Position numbers and translations under genes: made by a program. From the NCBI GenBank assembly GCA_030614005.1, contig JAUWKS010000020.1:22034-54033 (forward strand): a stretch of DNA of 32,000 nt, given 5' to 3'. This stretch comes from Candidatus Heimdallarchaeota archaeon (lineage in GTDB: Archaea > Asgardarchaeota > Heimdallarchaeia > JABLTI01). Below the pieces are notes generated by a model. That model was not told where the DNA came from. It was given only the letters and a program-made list of their open reading frames with translations, and did no database searches. Positions 2,073 to 31,523 of the stretch are shown here, in pieces (positions within the stretch are counted from its first letter, which is position 1; every line of letters begins with the position of its first letter).

Positions 2073-3941
2073 TTATTCGTCGTCTCTTTCTACCCATGAG
2101 AACTTATTTTGTAATGTTTTCGAGTAATAGTTTCTCCAATCATAGTCTACTTCTTTTCCCCAAGCATGATATATTCTTGGATCAATATACGACTTCAAGC
2201 TCGTTCCTAAATTCCACACTTTAGTTTTCTTAGAAATTCGTTCTTGTGTTTCGATTTTCTTATATGCTTCTTTTGCTTTGTAGACACGTTCCTTAGCTGT
2301 GCCTAAGCTATTTTTTCCTCTAGCGATTTGACTTTGAGCAATTTCTATGCGCTTTTTCGCAGTGCCAACTCGTTTCCTCTGAGTTTGTACTTTCTTCTTT
2401 TGTTTCGCACAAGCTTTAGTGAGTTTCACTTTTTCTTTTGAATCTTGTTCGTTGTTAGAAAGATCTTCTAGCTCAAGAAAATCACCTTTTGTTTGTTCGA
2501 GAATTTTTTGCTGCGCTTTTTCTTGTTTTCGTCTTTCCTTTAGATTCTTCTTAAGTTCTTCAAGACGTTCTTCTCTACCACTTTGGTTTAGTTTTGCTTT
2601 TTCAATGCGCTCACTTGATTTAATCTTTCGTTCTCTAAATCGTTGAATCCTATTTTCCCAATTCTTAGGTGCTTGTTTCATATGAGTACACACAACTGCT
2701 GCCTCGCGATTAGCCATCGTAGCAGCTTCTTTCTTCTTGTACTCTGGGTCATCTGCTGAAGTGTCAGATTCTTCTAAATGAGCTGAGACGATATTTGTTG
2801 CATGAAACGTTCTAAATACTTTTGCCGTAAGATCAGGCACAATATTACTGAAGAAATCATTAACCTGAGTACTACCAATTTTCGAGAAAATCTGAGGTTT
2901 ATCCTTTCCACTCTTTTCTGCTTCATCTATTAAAAATTGCAATTCTTTTATAATATATAATGGGAAAGTAGTATCTTTATTCCATTCCACAGAATCTTTT
3001 CCAAGAAAATTGAAATTTACCTCCTCACCATCAATTGTAACATGTTCAGGTCTTAAAGTGGTAGCACCTACGGTATCTGCTTCATCTTCATCCTTTTCGT
3101 CACCAACTCTCAGAATTAGTTGATCAATGATGTAACAGGCAAGAGCAATTTTTCTTGTCCGAGGATTATCACTTTTAATACCTTTATCAATTTCTAAACG
3201 AATTTTCTCTAATTGTCCCGCAACTTTCCTAGCCTTGTTGAATTTTTCGATTTCTCTATCTTGTTTTATGGGTGTATTATCTGATAGCCAGACGTATTTT
3301 GTTTTTTTGGAAAGTTTATCTTCCCATTTCGCAACCCAAAGACATTCTGGTTCCCAAACGATTTCTTTCCATTTCTCTTTCCAATTCTCTTTCTTCTGTT
3401 CTTCAGATAACTCACTTATATTGAGAACAATATCTTTTGAAGTAGGACCTTCTTTCCATTTACCTCGCATTGGATGTTCTCCTCGACCCATAAATATACT
3501 ACTAGGTTCAGCAGTCCAAGCTCCAATTTCCACTTTCATTTCGTCTAACAAGGTTGTGCCATAATATTCTTTTAGCTCTTCTCGAACAACCTTTCGGTCT
3601 TCTCTTGCTTGCTTTTTTTGTTCTTTAGTCAAACTTTCTTTCTCAGCTCTTACTGATTCAATGTGTTCAATTACCTCTGAAAAATCAATGTCATCATCTG
3701 TGAGATTGTCATATCCTAGTTTTCTACTGAAATCGGCAAAGAAATTTTTACAAAAAATAGTATCATCTACATAGACTGTAGAAAGTTTTCTAACCCAAGC
3801 AATAGCCATTTGTTCTTGCATTGGATCGAGTTCTATCCTAGTATCTTTTACTCCAATTGTTAATCCAAGATACTTAATTTCTGAAATCATAATTCCATTG
3901 TGAGTTAGTTTTTTCATTTCTACCAAGGCACTGAACCTCAT
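2073..3941 (-). CDS. top1: DNA topoisomerase IB (eukaryote-like)
   Basis: The catalytic pentad motifs are intact: LILRVGDEK (R), FLGKDS (K), KVFRTF (R), VCTH (H), LGTSLKSYIDPR (Y). N-terminal LTHNG and FMGRGEHP motifs are present. Alternative start ATG at 3917. Confidence 0.95.
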   Translation of the reverse strand: MRFSALVEMKKLTHNGIMISEIKYLGLTIGVKDTRIELDPMQEQMAIAWVRKLSTVYVDDTIFCKNFFADFSRKLGYDNLTDDDIDFSEVIEHIESVRAEKESLTKEQKKQAREDRKVVREELKEYYGTTLLDEMKVEIGAWTAEPSSIFMGRGEHPMRGKWKEGPTSKDIVLNISELSEEQKKENWKEKWKEIVWEPECLWVAKWEDKLSKKTKYVWLSDNTPIKQDREIEKFNKARKVAGQLEKIRLEIDKGIKSDNPRTRKIALACYIIDQLILRVGDEKDEDEADTVGATTLRPEHVTIDGEEVNFNFLGKDSVEWNKDTTFPLYIIKELQFLIDEAEKSGKDKPQIFSKIGSTQVNDFFSNIVPDLTAKVFRTFHATNIVSAHLEESDTSADDPEYKKKEAATMANREAAVVCTHMKQAPKNWENRIQRFRERKIKSSERIEKAKLNQSGREERLEELKKNLKERRKQEKAQQKILEQTKGDFLELEDLSNNEQDSKEKVKLTKACAKQKKKVQTQRKRVGTAKKRIEIAQSQIARGKNSLGTAKERVYKAKEAYKKIETQERISKKTKVWNLGTSLKSYIDPRIYHAWGKEVDYDWRNYYSKTLQNKFSWVERDDE

Positions 3942-4022: not shown

Positions 4023-4727
4023 TTATCTTACTTCACAAACTTCAAAATTTGCTTTAATTTTTTCACAAGCATCTTCAAGAATACCTAAGCGAAATGGTTG
4101 AAGCTTTTCAAATTCCTTATCTAAACACTTCAAGGGTCTGAATTGTTGAATATACAATCGCTTTGCTCCTTTGATCATTTCCGCAATAATTGGAATATCA
4201 TGTTCAGGATCGATTATTGTAGGAACAACTGTTGTTCTAAATTCATAATCAATATCAGAATCAATTATGATTTTAATTGATTTCAGAATATTTTTGATGT
4301 TCACTTTCTTGCCAGCAGCGAGGTGATATTTCTCTGGAATTGCTTTAACATCCATAGCAATATAATCAAGCAATTTGTCATCAATAAGTTTCTGAATTAC
4401 ATCAGGATGATTACCATTGGTGTCAATTTTTGTTTTTAACCCCATTCCTTTGATAATTTTCAGAAAATCAGGCAATCGCTTACTGAGAGAAGGTTCTCCT
4501 CCAGTAATTGACACTCCATCCAGCCATTTGCTCTTTGATCTCTTTTCAATTTCTGCAAGAATTTCATTCGTATCAAAACTTTTTACAGCATCTAAAGGAA
4601 TTAAATCCGGATTGTGACAGAATGGACATCGAAAATCACATCCTGCAAGAAAGATACTATCTACAATTAGACCTGACCACTCAATAATTGAACCCTGTTT
4701 ATACCCCTTAATTTCAAGTCCTACCAA
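4023..4727 (-). CDS. nrdG: anaerobic ribonucleoside-triphosphate reductase activating enzyme (radical SAM)
   Basis: Radical SAM motif CDFRCPFC, plus SITGGEP, KIDTNG and YEFRTT; adjacent to nrdD. Confidence 0.92.
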   Translation of the reverse strand: MVGLEIKGYKQGSIIEWSGLIVDSIFLAGCDFRCPFCHNPDLIPLDAVKSFDTNEILAEIEKRSKSKWLDGVSITGGEPSLSKRLPDFLKIIKGMGLKTKIDTNGNHPDVIQKLIDDKLLDYIAMDVKAIPEKYHLAAGKKVNIKNILKSIKIIIDSDIDYEFRTTVVPTIIDPEHDIPIIAEMIKGAKRLYIQQFRPLKCLDKEFEKLQPFRLGILEDACEKIKANFEVCEVR

Positions 4728-4746
4728 TTATGTATTCAACTCGATT

Positions 4747-5007
4747 TTATTTTGCTTGAAGTTCTTTTTGAACTTGCTCTATTGGAGGTACTTCTCCTCT
4801 CCAAGCTTTAACTTCACTATCGGATTCATCGACAATAATCAAAGAAGGTGTTGAAAGAACATCAAAATAAACTGATTCTGATAAACCTTCTTCATCATCT
4901 AAATTGAACCACTCAACAACAGTACCTTTTTCTTCAAGTTTTTTTGCCATAGCTTTTGCTGGAGGGCAATTTGGACAATCTGCTTTTGTAAATACTTTTA
5001 ATTTCAT
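4747..5007 (-). CDS. thioredoxin/glutaredoxin (NrdH-like redoxin)
   Basis: CPNC active site and STP cis-Pro motif in 86 aa; GAGGA SD; lies between nrdD and nrdG. Confidence 0.85.
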   Translation of the reverse strand: MKLKVFTKADCPNCPPAKAMAKKLEEKGTVVEWFNLDDEEGLSESVYFDVLSTPSLIIVDESDSEVKAWRGEVPPIEQVQKELQAK

Positions 5008-5119
5008 TATCTATCTATCCTCAAATTTTTTTCTGTCTGTTTTACTATTAATCTAAAAAATAAATATAAAAAGATAAAGGAAGAGAAGAGGCGAACGAGG
5101 TTCGACCTGATCATGCACC

Positions 5120-5353
5120 CTACACGTCATCAGACCAATAATTGCCTTTTTGTCTTCTCTTTAACTCTGATTTCTTAGAGTTGTTCCAGTTATCAATTAT
5201 ACTAAAGTATCCTACTACCCTGCTAATACCGTAAACATTGTCGCTGTTACAGTATGGGCAATTAGGAGTAGAACACGTTTCACCTGCATGTTCTATATTT
5301 TGTTCTGTTGTTACTTCGGTTATTTTTGTTATAGTTGTTTTTGCCTGTTCCAT
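5120..5353 (-). CDS. nrdD: stand-alone C-terminal glycyl-radical segment of class III RNR (half Zn ribbon + RVVGY loop)
   Basis: CPYCNSDNVYGISRVVGYFSIIDNWNNSKKSELKRR matches the NrdD C-terminus. It has its own ATG with GAGGA 8 nt upstream and is in a different frame from the main nrdD ORF. Confidence 0.85.
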   Translation of the reverse strand: MEQAKTTITKITEVTTEQNIEHAGETCSTPNCPYCNSDNVYGISRVVGYFSIIDNWNNSKKSELKRRQKGNYWSDDV

Positions 5354-5421
5354 ACAATTTTTCCTCGATAGTTTATTTTTCTTTTTACGCCATTTTTCGA
5401 TTTGTTTTCTTTTTCAGCCCA

Positions 5422-7842
5422 CTATTGACCTTGTACAGAAGAACTTGTTGATCTGCCAAAGCCCCTACTAACTTGTCCACAATCTCTACAGACTGTAAAC
5501 TCTGGTGAAAACACTATCTGTGCGCTCTGGGTATTGTCCCATGTTTTCTTAACCAGATTCATTATTGATTCCGCCGAGGGTTTTTGCTCGCCGACGAATA
5601 TGTGTGTGATAGAACCGCTTTCAATGAGGGTATTGAATTTCCCTTGTTTTGAAATTCTATCAATAATATCAATAGGTGCATCAGCTGCGAAGTGTGCACT
5701 ATTGGTATAGTAAATTGATCCTTCGTCAATATCACCCTTGACATAATGAATACTGTCAGGATATTCCTTAAGATCAGTTCTCGCGAATTTAAAAGGAGCA
5801 CTTTCTCCTGGAGTTTCTTCAAGAGTAACAGTTAGACCATGTAGTTTTTGGAGAGCTTTTGCTTTTAGGTTCATTCCAGCAATAATCTTTAGGCCTAGTT
5901 TGTAGGCTTTTTCGCTGTCATGTTGTTCTTCATCAATAAGATATTGAACACATTCATTTAATCCTATAACGCCTATAATGTAAGTTGCTTTTTCCAAATC
6001 AACATAAGGTCTACCATCTTCAGCAATCATACCAATTTGCCAAAGGGTGCCATTTTCTTGAGTCATGAGTTGAGTAATGAATTCCTTCTTCTCAAGATGA
6101 GCTTCCATTGCTAAATCCATTGCTCGTCTAATTTCTTCAATTGTTTTCTTTACGTTACCTTTTCCGGCTCGATACGCTGCTTGTGGTAAATTAATGCTCA
6201 CATTTTGGAACCCACAATAACGCATGCTTTCAGGATGTTCAATCATATACATGTCAGTGATTGTTGTTTTTAATCGACAGCACATTGAAAGATTGATTTC
6301 ATCGCGATCAAATATGAAATAAGTTGAACCATTTTCAGAGGATATTTTACATGCCAGTTCCAACAATTTATACTGTTCAGGATCATCAAAGGAACTTTGA
6401 TCAATATGTAAATCAAATTTTGGAAATGGGAAGACTTTCGATTCAGAATCTCCTTCTAACCAAACTTCCATTAATGCTTTAGCAAATAATTGTGTTTCTT
6501 TTTCATACTCGCCATAATTTTTTCCAGTATATTTACCACCAGGGCCAATTGCGGGTATGTTTTTGAGATATCTTGGAATGCCTAAATGAATATTAAAATC
6601 TACAAAAAGGGTTTGTCCCCCTCTTGAGAACGCATTTTGACTGCAAGAATAAATCAATCGCTGTGCTTCTTGTTTTATTTGTTTATATGGGACACCAACA
6701 AAATAAGGGGCATAAAAGATATTCAGATAAGCTAATCCTAAAGCACCGGCATAATATGCTTGCATTGAAGCTAAGAAGGTATTAAGATGTCCAGTAAGAG
6801 TATCTGCATGATTTGCTGGGTTTGAAACGGTTGAGAGATTTAACAAGTTCAATCCATATTTTTTGATATATTCTAAGCTATGAGCAGAGCAATACACCCT
6901 GACTGGGAAACCCAAATCATGCAGGTAAATCATTCCTTTTCTGTGTGCATTTGCTACTTCCTTGGAGAAGAGCTCTTGAAGAGCAAATTTTTTCAATATT
7001 GCTTCTGCAATAGCTAAGTTCACCGCCTCTGGATTATTGGCGACTACGTTACTATTTTCTTTGCTTTTTGAAAGTATAAGTTGTTTAAGATCGAATGTGG
7101 GTATACCAATAGTTTTCTGTTGAACCAATTTAGTATTATACCCTCGAGTAAATAATTCATTATCAACCAAACTTCTGATAAAATCAACTGATATTACACC
7201 TATGCCAGATGCAAATATCTTTCTTTCAACTTCTATGGAAACAGAATCAGCATCTGCACGATTTAATCCTGCTTCTTTAACCAAAGCGGCAGTAATTTTT
7301 GTTCGGTCCCAACCAGAAATTTCCTCTCGAGTATCAGCTGATACCATTAACAGAAGTTCAGTAGAATCACGACTTTTCACATCTACTTCCTTTACTACTT
7401 TTAATTTCTCCAACTCACGTTCAAATGAAGCGATATCTGTGAATCGTCTATAAACTGAAGCATAACGAATATAAGCAACTTCATCGAGTCCTCGGAGTTT
7501 TTCCATAACTAATTCTCCTACGACACTAGCTTCAATTTCCAATTCTTCATTTTTTCTTAATTCACTTTCAATTTCATCTATAACGTCTTCAATTTCCTCA
7601 GAAGAAATAGGTCTTTTTTCGCAGGCTTTTACGATACCTTTTTTGACTTTCTCACGATCAAATGGTTCCCTACGTTTATCCTTCTTTACAATAGTAAGCT
7701 TCACTTGTTCTATTCGTTCATAAGTTGAAAATCGCTTTTTACATTGAAGACATTCTCTTCTTCGTCTATTTGCTTTCATGTCTTCTGACGCTCGTTTATC
7801 AACGACTCGAGTATTTGGCGATTGACAGTAAGGGCATTTCAT
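5422..7842 (-). CDS. nrdD: NrdR transcriptional repressor fused to class III (anaerobic) ribonucleotide reductase NrdD lacking the Gly-radical tail
   Basis: aa 1-147 are NrdR (CPYC..VVDKR..RRRRECLQCKKRFSTYE, ATP cone, VAYIRYASVYRRF). A second ATP cone (GWDRTKI) follows, then the NrdD core (YLHDLG, VYCSAH, SQNAFSRGGQ, FPFPKF, SMCCRL, EETPGES, YYTNS). The ORF ends after one CRDC knuckle. Confidence 0.93.
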   Translation of the reverse strand: MKCPYCQSPNTRVVDKRASEDMKANRRRRECLQCKKRFSTYERIEQVKLTIVKKDKRREPFDREKVKKGIVKACEKRPISSEEIEDVIDEIESELRKNEELEIEASVVGELVMEKLRGLDEVAYIRYASVYRRFTDIASFERELEKLKVVKEVDVKSRDSTELLLMVSADTREEISGWDRTKITAALVKEAGLNRADADSVSIEVERKIFASGIGVISVDFIRSLVDNELFTRGYNTKLVQQKTIGIPTFDLKQLILSKSKENSNVVANNPEAVNLAIAEAILKKFALQELFSKEVANAHRKGMIYLHDLGFPVRVYCSAHSLEYIKKYGLNLLNLSTVSNPANHADTLTGHLNTFLASMQAYYAGALGLAYLNIFYAPYFVGVPYKQIKQEAQRLIYSCSQNAFSRGGQTLFVDFNIHLGIPRYLKNIPAIGPGGKYTGKNYGEYEKETQLFAKALMEVWLEGDSESKVFPFPKFDLHIDQSSFDDPEQYKLLELACKISSENGSTYFIFDRDEINLSMCCRLKTTITDMYMIEHPESMRYCGFQNVSINLPQAAYRAGKGNVKKTIEEIRRAMDLAMEAHLEKKEFITQLMTQENGTLWQIGMIAEDGRPYVDLEKATYIIGVIGLNECVQYLIDEEQHDSEKAYKLGLKIIAGMNLKAKALQKLHGLTVTLEETPGESAPFKFARTDLKEYPDSIHYVKGDIDEGSIYYTNSAHFAADAPIDIIDRISKQGKFNTLIESGSITHIFVGEQKPSAESIMNLVKKTWDNTQSAQIVFSPEFTVCRDCGQVSRGFGRSTSSSVQGQ

Positions 7843-7971
7843 TATTCTAGTTCACTCGTTTTTTCTTAGGCACTATTTTCCTGCGCCGATTTTTATTTTG
7901 GCGTTTTATGTCGGTTCTAGGAGACGGTCTCACCTCTAAGCGAGTTTGTTTCCTTTACAGCCCACCCTATA

Positions 7972-7987
7972 CCACCACATCTGGTGG
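7972..7987. promoter_or_regulatory. NrdR box (proximal)
   Basis: CCACCACATCTGGTGG is a near-perfect 16-bp palindrome fitting the NrdR consensus acaCwAtATaTwGtgt. Confidence 0.8.
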
Positions 7988-8002
7988 TTTGTGGTCCCTC
8001 AA

Positions 8003-8018
8003 ACACAACATATTGTAT
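8003..8018. promoter_or_regulatory. NrdR box (distal)
   Basis: ACACAACATATTGTAT lies 31 bp start-to-start (15-bp spacer) from the other box, the canonical tandem NrdR arrangement. Confidence 0.8.
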
Positions 8019-8043
8019 ATGTTATTTGTTTCTGAACGCTTTG

Positions 8044-8051
8044 TATTTAAA
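8044..8051 (-). promoter_or_regulatory. TATA box of the nrdR-nrdD transcript (candidate)
   Basis: TTTAAATA on the minus strand predicts a start near 8020, immediately before the distal NrdR box. An alternative TTATAAAA lies near 8070-8077. Confidence 0.5.
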
Positions 8052-8182
8052 TGTTATGTGAATGAGAATTTTTATAAGAATAAATAATCATCTATAAAAA
8101 TCAAAAAATAGTTCACCAAATTTTTTTTCACTCGGATAACTTGTAAAACAAAAAAAGAGAAAATGTCCTATAAATATTTCAT

Positions 8183-9949
8183 CTACAGAACAGTTACGGA
8201 TTTGGCCAAGTTTCTAGGAAAATCAGGATCATTTCCGCGAAGTATAGAAAGATGATAAGCAATTAACTGCAGAATAGGAATTATAACAATTGGTTCAAGA
8301 GCAACTTTTGCTAGAGGGATATAATGATCAAAGATGTCTAGCTTTTCAGAGGAAATGCCGATTATAATTCCACCACGAGCTTTGATCTGCATAATGTTAT
8401 TGATCATATCATCTTTAGTTTCATCATTTGGAACGAGTGCAATGCATGATACACCAGGTTCAATAAGTGCAAGAGTATGATGTTTTAATTCACCACCTGC
8501 CAGAGCATCAGCGTGAATATAGGCAATTTCCTTAATTTTAAGTTCGCCTTCCATTGCAACTGGAAAAGCAACTCCACGTCCAATTAGAAATAAATTTTGT
8601 TTATTCAGAACCTCTTTAGATAACTCCTTGATAAAATCAGATTGTTTCATTATAATCTCAAATTGAAAAATTACTTCATTGAGGTGTTCTTTACCTTCTG
8701 CAAGTTGATTGTTTAAAGCATATGCTAACATCACCAAAATAAGTACTTGAGAGGTGAAAGCTTTCGTTGAAGCAACAGCAATTTCAGGGCCAGCGTTTAA
8801 AGTAAGAAATTGTTCGGACTCACGCATAATAGTACTACCCATAACATTTACTAAAGAAACAACTTTTGCACCTTTGCTTTTGGCAATTTTAATTCCTTCC
8901 AAAACATCTGCAGTTTCACCAGATTGACTAATGGCGAAAAGAACTGTTTCGTTATCAAACAAATTCTGATAGGTTTTAAATTCAGACCCTAAAATAGGCA
9001 TGAAGTTTCGATGGCAAAGTTTAGCAAAATAAATCGATGCTATGAGACAAGCACGATAAGAAGTTCCAGAACCGAGAAAATAGACATTTTTTGCTTGGGT
9101 CAACAAGGTAACAAGTTCAGCTAATTTTGCTGGATCTTGATCCAATGCTTGCTTTGAAACCTCAGCTTCTTCAAATATTTCCTTTAGCATGAAATGTGGA
9201 TAACCATCTTTTGTGGCTTGCTCTGCAGTCCAGTCGATTGTAGATATTTCCTTCTTAATTTCTTTACCTGCTGCTAAATCATAAATTGTGCATTCATCAT
9301 TTAGGATTGCTAATTCATAGTTCTCTAAAATAATTGCTTTATTTGTATATTCTAAGAAGGAAGTCATATCAGATGAAGCGAAGAATTCATTTTCACCAAC
9401 GCCAATAATTAGTGGAGAATCCTTTCTAAAACAATAAATATCACCTGATTTTTTACTTAACAATAAGAAAGTGAAAGCTCCTTTTGCTTGTTCAGAAGTT
9501 TCCTTTATTGCTTTGATTATATCTTTGGCTTGTTTCATATTTTCTTCTATTAAATGAACTAAGACTTCAGTATCTGTTGTTGATGTAAAATGGTGTCCTT
9601 TTTCTACTAATTGTCTTTTCAATTCAACATAATTTTCTAAAATGCCATTGTGTACAAGAGCATATTCACCATCACAAGATGTAAAAGGATGGGCATTTTC
9701 CATCGTTACATTGCCATGAGTTGCCCAACGAGTATGAGCAATGCCTACTTTTCCTGTTAAAGATAAGAAATCAACTTTAGCATTTACTCGCTCAATTCGT
9801 CCTGTTCCTTTTCTAACAACTATAATATTATTTCCATTTAAAGAGGCCATACCACAGGAGTCATAACCACGATATTCTAATCGTTTCAATGAAGCCAGTA
9901 ATATTGGTGAGGCCTTTTGCTTTCCTGTATAACCGATTATTCCGCACAT
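8183..9949 (-). CDS. glmS: glutamine--fructose-6-phosphate aminotransferase (isomerizing)
   Basis: The true start is MCGIIGY (Ntn Cys) at 9949 with a GAGGA SD. Motifs: RGYDS, HTRWATHG, HNGI, SQSGET, AVASTKAF, C-terminal PRNLAKSVTV. Confidence 0.97.
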   Translation of the reverse strand: MCGIIGYTGKQKASPILLASLKRLEYRGYDSCGMASLNGNNIIVVRKGTGRIERVNAKVDFLSLTGKVGIAHTRWATHGNVTMENAHPFTSCDGEYALVHNGILENYVELKRQLVEKGHHFTSTTDTEVLVHLIEENMKQAKDIIKAIKETSEQAKGAFTFLLLSKKSGDIYCFRKDSPLIIGVGENEFFASSDMTSFLEYTNKAIILENYELAILNDECTIYDLAAGKEIKKEISTIDWTAEQATKDGYPHFMLKEIFEEAEVSKQALDQDPAKLAELVTLLTQAKNVYFLGSGTSYRACLIASIYFAKLCHRNFMPILGSEFKTYQNLFDNETVLFAISQSGETADVLEGIKIAKSKGAKVVSLVNVMGSTIMRESEQFLTLNAGPEIAVASTKAFTSQVLILVMLAYALNNQLAEGKEHLNEVIFQFEIIMKQSDFIKELSKEVLNKQNLFLIGRGVAFPVAMEGELKIKEIAYIHADALAGGELKHHTLALIEPGVSCIALVPNDETKDDMINNIMQIKARGGIIIGISSEKLDIFDHYIPLAKVALEPIVIIPILQLIAYHLSILRGNDPDFPRNLAKSVTVL

Positions 9950-10045
9950 AGTGTTTCCTCTTAAATATAAATTGCCAATTAGGAGTCTATCTCGTAGATA
10001 TAGAAAAGAGCTAATCAATTAAAAGCAATTCTAAAATTTCTTTCA

Positions 10046-31259: not shown

Positions 31260-31437
31260 TAATTTTTCACCTTCACACTATCACTACTATCCGATTAACT
31301 GATATTGTTCAAATTTAAATTAAAATCAATGTAACATCTACATTATCTGAAAATAATATGCCATCCTTTTACTGTTTCCAATTGATTTTTTACTCGCATT
31401 TTGTGCAATTTAGAGCTTCAAGAACAATTATATATTG

Positions 31438-31485
31438 TTAAGGCGATATATTGATAGTACAATGTATGCTTAGGGCGATATATTG
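31438..31485 (+). promoter_or_regulatory. 16-bp direct repeat pair TTA(A/G)GGCGATATATTG, 32 bp apart, downstream of a TATA box
   Basis: Copies at 31438-31453 and 31470-31485 are 15/16 identical; TTATATAT lies at 31428-31435. Confidence 0.55.
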
Positions 31486-31523
31486 GGTCTATGGATAATT
31501 TAAGAAATAAAAAAATTACTAAG

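Follow-up and report, generated by a model that had tools for sequence, protein, structure and literature searches.

A predicted tandem NrdR operator between an archaeal TATA box and the fused nrdR-nrdD gene of a Heimdallarchaeota family

The closest described counterparts of the regulatory element analysed here are bacterial NrdR operators with an autoregulated nrdR, namely those of nrdRJ from S. coelicolor (7P37/7P3F/7P3Q; PMC9110341) and of nrdDG from E. coli or Listeria (PMC12176259, PMC12051234). In the presence of ATP plus dATP, bacterial NrdR assembles into a tetramer, the Zn ribbons of which attach to both boxes of the operator and kink them; with ATP alone, other oligomers are formed and no DNA is bound (PMC9110341, PMC12051234). 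Mutational and bioinformatic work has identified C4, A6, A8, T9, T11, and G13 as the highly conserved positions of an NrdR box (PMC13584703). The common bacterial spacer of 15-16 bp places the two boxes three helical turns apart, measured from centre to centre (PMC12051234), and the sequence of this linker has been reported as immaterial. NrdR is also present in 22% of archaeal genomes (PMC13584703), other papers call it rare in archaea, and the nrdR-nrdAB operons of haloarchaea have been described as gains from bacteria (PMC3019208). According to the literature searched, NrdR has been studied in bacteria only and its archaeal occurrence was remarked upon. This limited search yielded no account of the position of NrdR boxes on an archaeal promoter, including that of the haloarchaeal nrdR, no paper on NrdR in DPANN, and no mention of an NrdR-NrdD fusion.

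Known systems of two other kinds invite comparison. MDR1 from Archaeoglobus as well as LrpA and Phr from Pyrococcus are repressors that occupy sites just behind the TATA box and thereby prevent the recruitment of polymerase. PutA, BirA, and NadR are enzymes which also repress the genes that encode them.

The element lies in a stretch of 32,000 nucleotides from a Candidatus Heimdallarchaeota archaeon, which was analysed as a whole and is termed the window. The host genome (3.62 Mb, 33.5% G+C, 90% complete) contains genes for both TBP and TFB. Together with the topoisomerase IB of the eukaryotic type and the DHH-CID protein encoded in the window, this identifies the host as an archaeon with TATA-dependent transcription; a scan for sigma-70 promoters and terminators was set aside as irrelevant for the same reason. 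The relevant features are listed in the direction of transcription of the minus strand.

8183-10018, minus strand: glmS, the upstream gene on the same strand
8145..8156, minus strand: oligo-T tract (T7-G-T4), separated by 27 nt from the preceding stop codon of glmS (8185-8183)
8052..8061, minus strand: BRE-like block directly upstream of the TATA box, its columns partly conserved in the alignment of ten orthologues
8044..8051 (8051-8044), minus strand: TATA box TTTAAATA, an exact TTTAWATA in 10/10 orthologues
8018..8020, minus strand: predicted transcription start, 23-25 nt after the last TATA base
8003..8018: NrdR box 1, nearest to the TATA box and distal from the gene, ACACAACATATTGTAT on the plus and ATACAATATGTTGTGT on the minus strand, 6/6 core positions
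7988..8002: linker of 15 bp, which holds a G-run
7972..7987: NrdR box 2, CCACCACATCTGGTGG on the plus and CCACCAGATGTGGTGG on the minus strand, 6/6 core positions
7843..7971, minus strand: rest of the 5' leader (129 nt), with a Shine-Dalgarno-like GAGTGA at 7857-7852 and the ATG following at 7842
5422..7842, minus strand: nrdR-nrdD fusion gene (nrdRD, 806 aa), an NrdR module fused in frame to the class III reductase NrdD
7402..7842, minus strand: complete NrdR module (codons 1-147), consisting of Zn ribbon and ATP-cone
5120-5353, minus strand: glycyl-radical subunit (77 aa), operon member
4747-5007, minus strand: thioredoxin-like protein, operon member
4023-4727, minus strand: radical-SAM activase NrdG, operon member

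Read along the minus strand, TTTAAATA is thus followed by 25 nt, box 1, 15 nt, box 2, the remaining 129 nt of the leader, and the ATG. The locus shares with the bacterial NrdR operators two 16-bp boxes that are partial palindromes and have the six core positions, a spacer of 15-16 bp, and the placement of the boxes over the start-site region, here a predicted one, of an RNR operon. Further common traits are a repressor gene within the controlled operon, the contact residues of the Zn ribbon, and a full ATP-cone. In contrast to the bacterial systems, the predicted promoter of nrdRD has an archaeal TATA/BRE arrangement for TBP/TFB instead of -35/-10 elements, box 2 is degenerate in its centre within the family, and the linker carries a conserved G-run. 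Moreover, bacterial NrdR is a free protein of 150 aa, whereas the module encoded here constitutes the N-terminus of an 806-aa reductase. As with the free-standing NrdR of other archaea, an NrdR is found beside an archaeal RNR operon that it presumably controls; however, those are separate genes that accompany class I enzymes, whereas in nrdRD the module is joined to an enzyme of class III, and the host belongs to the Asgard archaea. What is unusual is the setting of a canonical element: an archaeal promoter, a repressor tethered to the enzyme that it would control, and an Asgard host.

The pair of boxes constitutes a 47-bp element (7972-8018), which is located inside the 340-bp glmS-nrdRD spacer, 130-176 nt upstream of the nrdRD start. 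Both boxes comprise 16 bp and are 31 bp apart from start to start. A re-reading of the sequence bore out the box coordinates and this distance, which had been given in a preceding sequence-only reading of the window. Its estimate that the distal box begins about 26 nt after the TATA element is close to the 25 nt that separate TTTAAATA from base 8018, and the match to the NrdR consensus and to the three-helical-turn spacing that it had claimed was likewise confirmed, with 12/12 core positions and a 15-bp linker. The two 16-bp boxes with their six core positions each and the 15-bp spacer are situated in the promoter region of an RNR operon, and a cognate NrdR is encoded in the genome.

A search for single boxes with a degenerate consensus and at most three mismatches matched the distal box only, and 94 of 100 shuffled sequences also gave at least one match; one box alone is therefore not significant. 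Pairs with 12/12 core positions at a distance of 31-32 bp occur twice in the whole 3.62-Mb genome compared to 0.85 expected, and the chance expectation of such a pair in the 340-bp glmS-nrdRD spacer is 8e-5. If ACAC/GTGT flanks are additionally required, the site at 7972-8018 stands out alone in the genome. Hence, the significance of the pair rests on the tandem arrangement, the place, and the conservation, and not on a single box. We regard the 47-bp element as an authentic NrdR operator that belongs to the nrdRD promoter.

The second 12/12 pair, at 31441-31488, was rejected. It belongs to another repeat (GGCGATATATTG), is devoid of the ACAC/GTGT flanks, and lies beside an ORF. Positions 31420-31490 of the window contain three copies of ATATATTG, two of which occur as GGCGATATATTG 32 bp apart, and the array ends 3 nt before the ATG (31491) of the ORF, which has no Pfam match. 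The ATATATTG array looks like the operator of a different factor and agrees with the NrdR core by coincidence only.

In archaea, the centre of the TATA box sits near -26 from the transcription start. Applying this distance rule alone, the start of nrdRD transcription is predicted at about 8020-8018. A pyrimidine just before box 1 and an A as the first base of box 1 are present in 9/10 orthologues, and this pyrimidine/A step would fit an initiator at that place. In the host genome, the 5' ends of several mature tRNAs are preceded, at a distance of approximately 30-37 nt, by TTTAWAAA elements, which are similar to the TATA box. A histogram of TTTAWATA upstream of long ORFs displayed a broad 1.6-fold excess on the sense strand between -120 and -40; it proved too blunt as a gauge of the TATA-to-start distance. 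Oligo-T runs terminate archaeal RNA polymerase. The T7-G-T4 tract probably ends the glmS transcript and, as a putative terminator, would make nrdRD a transcription unit of its own.

A promoter between box 2 and the ATG was considered and discarded, as a TATA-like 8-mer is present there in only 2/10 orthologues and at non-equivalent places; no TATA-like element of this interval is conserved among the ten orthologues. A short upstream ORF that begins with an ATG within box 1 was also dismissed; read by eye, it comprises 0-16 codons and is absent in one orthologue. A comparison of the spacer with Rfam gave no match at gathering score or at E values up to 1, save a chance snoRNA with an E value of 0.8.

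Upstream of the operator, up to three TATA-like 8-mers with at most one mismatch follow each other at intervals of approximately 24-25 bp (window 8044-8100, minus strand). All ten orthologues possess further 8-mers of this kind near -59 and/or -83 from box 1, and both are present in 6/10; only the nearest one, at -33/-34, is exact in all ten. The additional 8-mers may represent tandem promoters or sites for another factor.

The fused gene was detected in nine other genomes of the same family, that is, in 8/10 others of the genus and in 1/1 of a second genus, and in 0/29 genomes from other families of the class. The reading frame is open across the junction in 9/10 family genomes and encodes 804-850 aa, the tenth being cut by the end of a contig. 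Over residues 1-160, which comprise the NrdR module and the linker, the orthologues share 76-96% identity. All ten share the order TATA box, 25-26 nt, box 1, 15-16 nt, and box 2, with an exact TTTAWATA 33-34 nt before the start of box 1. Box 1 has 6/6 core positions in each of them. Box 2 retains 4-6/6 core positions; C2, A3, C4, A6, G7, T11, G13, and T14 are invariant, the central positions 8-10 vary, and the central AT has been lost in most orthologues. Work on bacteria indicates that the loss of the central AT of an NrdR box can be tolerated (PMC13584703). The linker comprises 15 bp in nine orthologues and 16 bp in one. Box 1, box 2, and the linker have mean pairwise identities of 0.88, 0.73, and 0.66, respectively, compared to 0.39-0.50 in the flanks. 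The preservation of the boxes upstream of orthologues had been named as a test in the sequence-only reading; it was carried out, and the boxes are kept in 10/10 cases.

The distance between the start of box 1 and the ATG ranges from 98 to 183 nt among the orthologues, and the leader sequence varies as well. As the distance between TATA box and box 1 is fixed while the leader differs in length, the operator is tied to the TATA box and not to the start codon. The orthologous leaders end in GGTGA- or GGAG-like Shine-Dalgarno motifs. A run of three or four G is located 4-7 nt after box 1 in 9/10 of the Heimdall orthologues and also in one locus from Micrarchaeia (L123).

The candidate reader of the boxes is encoded directly downstream. 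According to Pfam, the fusion protein consists of a Zn ribbon (Zn_ribbon_NrdR, PF22811; residues 1-42, E 2e-17), an ATP-cone (PF03477; residues 50-136, E 3e-25), and NrdD (residues 262-791); a weak second ATP-cone is located at about residues 177-235. Residues 1-147 align without gaps to NrdR from E. coli (9fvr, E 3e-41), and residues 1-148 match residues 1-145 of the S. coelicolor NrdR chain (7p37, E 2.4e-30). In S. coelicolor NrdR, R12, R26-29, and R37 contact the DNA backbone, and D15 and R17 the major groove (PMC9110341). All of these residues (R12, D15, R17, R26-29, and R37) are present in the fusion protein at the same numbers. In an alignment of 18 fused homologues, D15, R17, R27-29, R37, and the four Cys residues are invariant. 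The protein thus displays the four-Cys Zn ribbon, followed by an ATP-cone, and the DNA-contact residues of an NrdR; it is not a free-standing protein of approximately 150-200 aa, the module being part of a chain of 806 aa. In a structure model of residues 1-330, the pLDDT is 70-85 for the module and below 50 for residues 148-175. This junction of approximately 28 residues between module and enzyme varies in length among the homologues. Its low pLDDT and variable length fit a flexible tether.

The only PF22811 match in the 90%-complete genome is the nrdRD gene directly downstream of the boxes. No class I/II reductase was found in this genome, and nrdRD is the only NrdD body found; at 90% completeness, another RNR or a separate NrdR protein might have escaped detection. 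The sole cognate DNA-binding module found in the genome is therefore part of the enzyme itself.

Among the best 120 protein clusters retrieved with residues 1-330 as query, approximately 100 have the same three-domain layout; to judge by their names, they come from Heimdallarchaeota, Aenigmatarchaeota, Micrarchaeota, and further groups of DPANN. Relatives that possess ATP-cone and NrdD and no Zn ribbon also exist. The public names of the three-domain proteins are inconsistent, namely either 'transcriptional regulator NrdR' or 'anaerobic ribonucleoside-triphosphate reductase'; annotation would benefit, as many of these proteins bear only one of the names 'NrdR' and 'anaerobic reductase' and are both. 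Some of the three-domain proteins contain inteins (PF14528/PF14890) and reach 1320-1380 aa.

Nine distant fused loci with 50-61% identity, whose records include Aenigmatarchaeota, Micrarchaeia, Norongarragalinales, and Tiddalikarchaeum, were inspected for box pairs. The best pair per locus scored 12/12 core positions in four loci, 11/12 in two, 10/12 in two, and 8/12 in one, and its start-to-start distance is 31 bp in three loci and 32 bp in six. Eight of the distant loci were inspected by eye, and in each of them the pair is preceded by a TATA-like element and followed by the start codon; box 1 overlaps this element (L123) or is separated from it by 2 nt up to approximately 36 nt. As the box pair is kept in all ten orthologues and recurs with fused genes of distant lineages, it is more than a chance occurrence. 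In one of the nine distant loci (L141, 284-603, from a public sequencing run), nrdRD and a class I/II RNR gene, which encodes 984 aa with an ATP-cone, are oriented divergently. The 317-bp spacer between these genes holds two NrdR-box pairs, one for each gene, and the boxes of the nrdRD-proximal pair are 33 bp apart. A repressor that acts in trans on a small regulon would require such a layout.

An NrdR Zn ribbon above the Pfam cut-off was present in 11/300 sampled Asgard genomes, a patchy distribution: nine of these, the host genome among them, belong to the Heimdall family, where the module is fused wherever the frame is readable, and two contain a free-standing form. For a tree of NrdR modules, an alignment-based locus search was exploited, which returned mostly bacterial free-standing NrdR genes and was used for no other purpose. 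In this tree, which is unrooted and weak in key branches (SH-aLRT 79-88), the fused forms group with free-standing NrdRs from DPANN, and the Heimdall module is nested among fused archaeal forms. The support is too weak to name a donor, and a root is missing. The sequence-only reading had proposed that a bacterial operator was grafted onto the TBP/TFB machinery. The canonical operator and the archaeal host with TBP and TFB agree with this proposal; a bacterial origin does not follow, as the nearest relatives of the module are archaeal.

By analogy with bacterial NrdR, the following mechanism is proposed. The boxes would be read by the N-terminal NrdR module (residues 1-147) of the reductase encoded just downstream. 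With dATP and ATP bound to the ATP-cones, the modules would tetramerise, and each pair of Zn ribbons would bind and kink one box. Given the predicted start, box 1 would extend from about +1 to +16 and box 2 from about +32 to +47. A tetramer that occupies the DNA from the start site onward may still allow TBP/TFB to bind the TATA box and would prevent the loading of RNA polymerase. At low dATP, other oligomers would form, the DNA would be released, and the operon would be transcribed with a long leader bearing the Shine-Dalgarno motif. Since NrdD carries the module, an abundance of dATP would cause the enzyme to repress the operon that encodes it.

The steps of this scheme differ in strength. 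It is likely that the NrdR operator is used by the fused module for autorepression, with DNA binding and its nucleotide dependence deduced from the bacterial proteins. That polymerase loading is blocked at the start site is suggested by the geometry, and the chances for and against it are about equal. We infer that the full-length enzyme, rather than a fragment, acts as the repressor. A broader proposal, which we advance tentatively and would not bet on, is that of a full-length RNR whose ATP-cone senses dATP/ATP and whose oligomer sits on its own promoter, perhaps silencing catalysis as well; this form would have spread through DPANN and been passed to one Heimdall family. The enzyme-repressor could even be the early form from which free NrdR arose. 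An 806-aa enzyme on each module, which is presumably dimeric, could hinder the geometry of the tetramer, and to our knowledge DNA binding is documented for free-standing NrdR only.

Other explanations of the locus were weighed against autorepression by the fused module. The operator might be real and transcription might start elsewhere, for example from one of the TATA-like elements that precede the TATA box by about 25 or 50 bp, in which case the bound protein would be an elongation roadblock and not a block to loading. TATA-like 8-mers near -59 and/or -83 are indeed a constant of all ten orthologues, six of which have both, and the TATA-to-box-1 distance is not universal, as is evident from its range in the distant loci. 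However, only the element at -33/-34 is an exact TTTAWATA in 10/10 orthologues and stays equally far from box 1, the first base of which conserves the pyrimidine/A step; an upstream start is therefore unlikely. It is also conceivable that the boxes were merely inherited together with the gene, and that the fused module now serves only as an extra allosteric ATP-cone, or that the boxes are used by another factor or a separate fragment. The relatives that combine ATP-cone and NrdD and have no Zn ribbon would be in line with a purely allosteric role. Dead operators would drift like the flanks, whereas the boxes and the DNA-contact residues are both constrained across deep lineages, and the search of the genome turned up no second NrdR domain, which renders this explanation improbable.

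If transcription starts at box 1, both boxes are transcribed, and the palindromes might act as hairpins of the RNA leader that affect stability or translation, and not as DNA sites. Box 2 of the present locus can form a hairpin of 6-7 bp, and its leader folds somewhat better than shuffled sequences (z = -2.4). Yet the self-complementarity of box 2 drops to 3-5/8 pairs in other orthologues while C4, A6, T11, and G13 remain invariant, compensatory changes were not found among the orthologues, no Rfam family matched, and a spacing of 31-32 bp would have no meaning for an RNA. We consider such a role very improbable. Least credible of all is a chance resemblance in AT-rich intergenic DNA, to which practically no weight is given: a single degenerate box is common in shuffled sequences, and the pair at 31441-31488 demonstrates that another repeat can reach 12/12 by coincidence, but only 8e-5 pairs are expected in the spacer, and the pair at 7972-8018 is kept in 10/10 orthologues and in distant fused loci.

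The preferred reading, an operator over the start site that is used by the fused module for autorepression, has parallels in both kinds of systems mentioned above. With MDR1, LrpA, and Phr it shares the geometry: a protein over the start site leaves TBP/TFB free and excludes RNA polymerase. These regulators differ from NrdR in protein family (winged helix or DtxR types) and in their ligands. PutA, BirA, and NadR combine catalysis and binding to their own operators on one polypeptide and couple a metabolite to expression, as is proposed for nrdRD; their domains are unrelated to those of the fusion protein. The nrdRD locus represents a conserved case, amenable to experiments, in which a nucleotide-sensing repressor of the bacterial style would face TBP/TFB-dependent transcription, and supplies a defined 47-bp operator and a defined module of 150 aa. 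If the full-length RNR is the repressor, one event would switch both enzyme activity and gene expression.

The remaining part of the operon spans 4023..5353 on the minus strand, and its gene order recurs in distant fused loci. NrdD is split in this operon (window 5120-5467, minus strand): of the C-terminal zinc site, the 806-aa body retains the first CxxC, behind which it stops, while the other Cys pair is contributed by the 77-aa ORF, together with the glycyl-radical motif RVVGY. The small protein has two additional, unlinked copies on other contigs of the genome (C103:22561-22719, minus strand; C110:63750-63893, plus strand), and no NrdR boxes were found near these two genes. The split of NrdD was also observed in six of the distant fused loci (L123, L124, L125, L140, L143, and L144) and not in L122. 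Directly downstream of the RNR operon, a full-length topoisomerase IB of the eukaryotic type is encoded at 2073-3941 on the minus strand, with N-terminal DNA-binding fragment, catalytic core, and C-terminal domain. The window also encodes a DHH-CID (GAN-type) protein.
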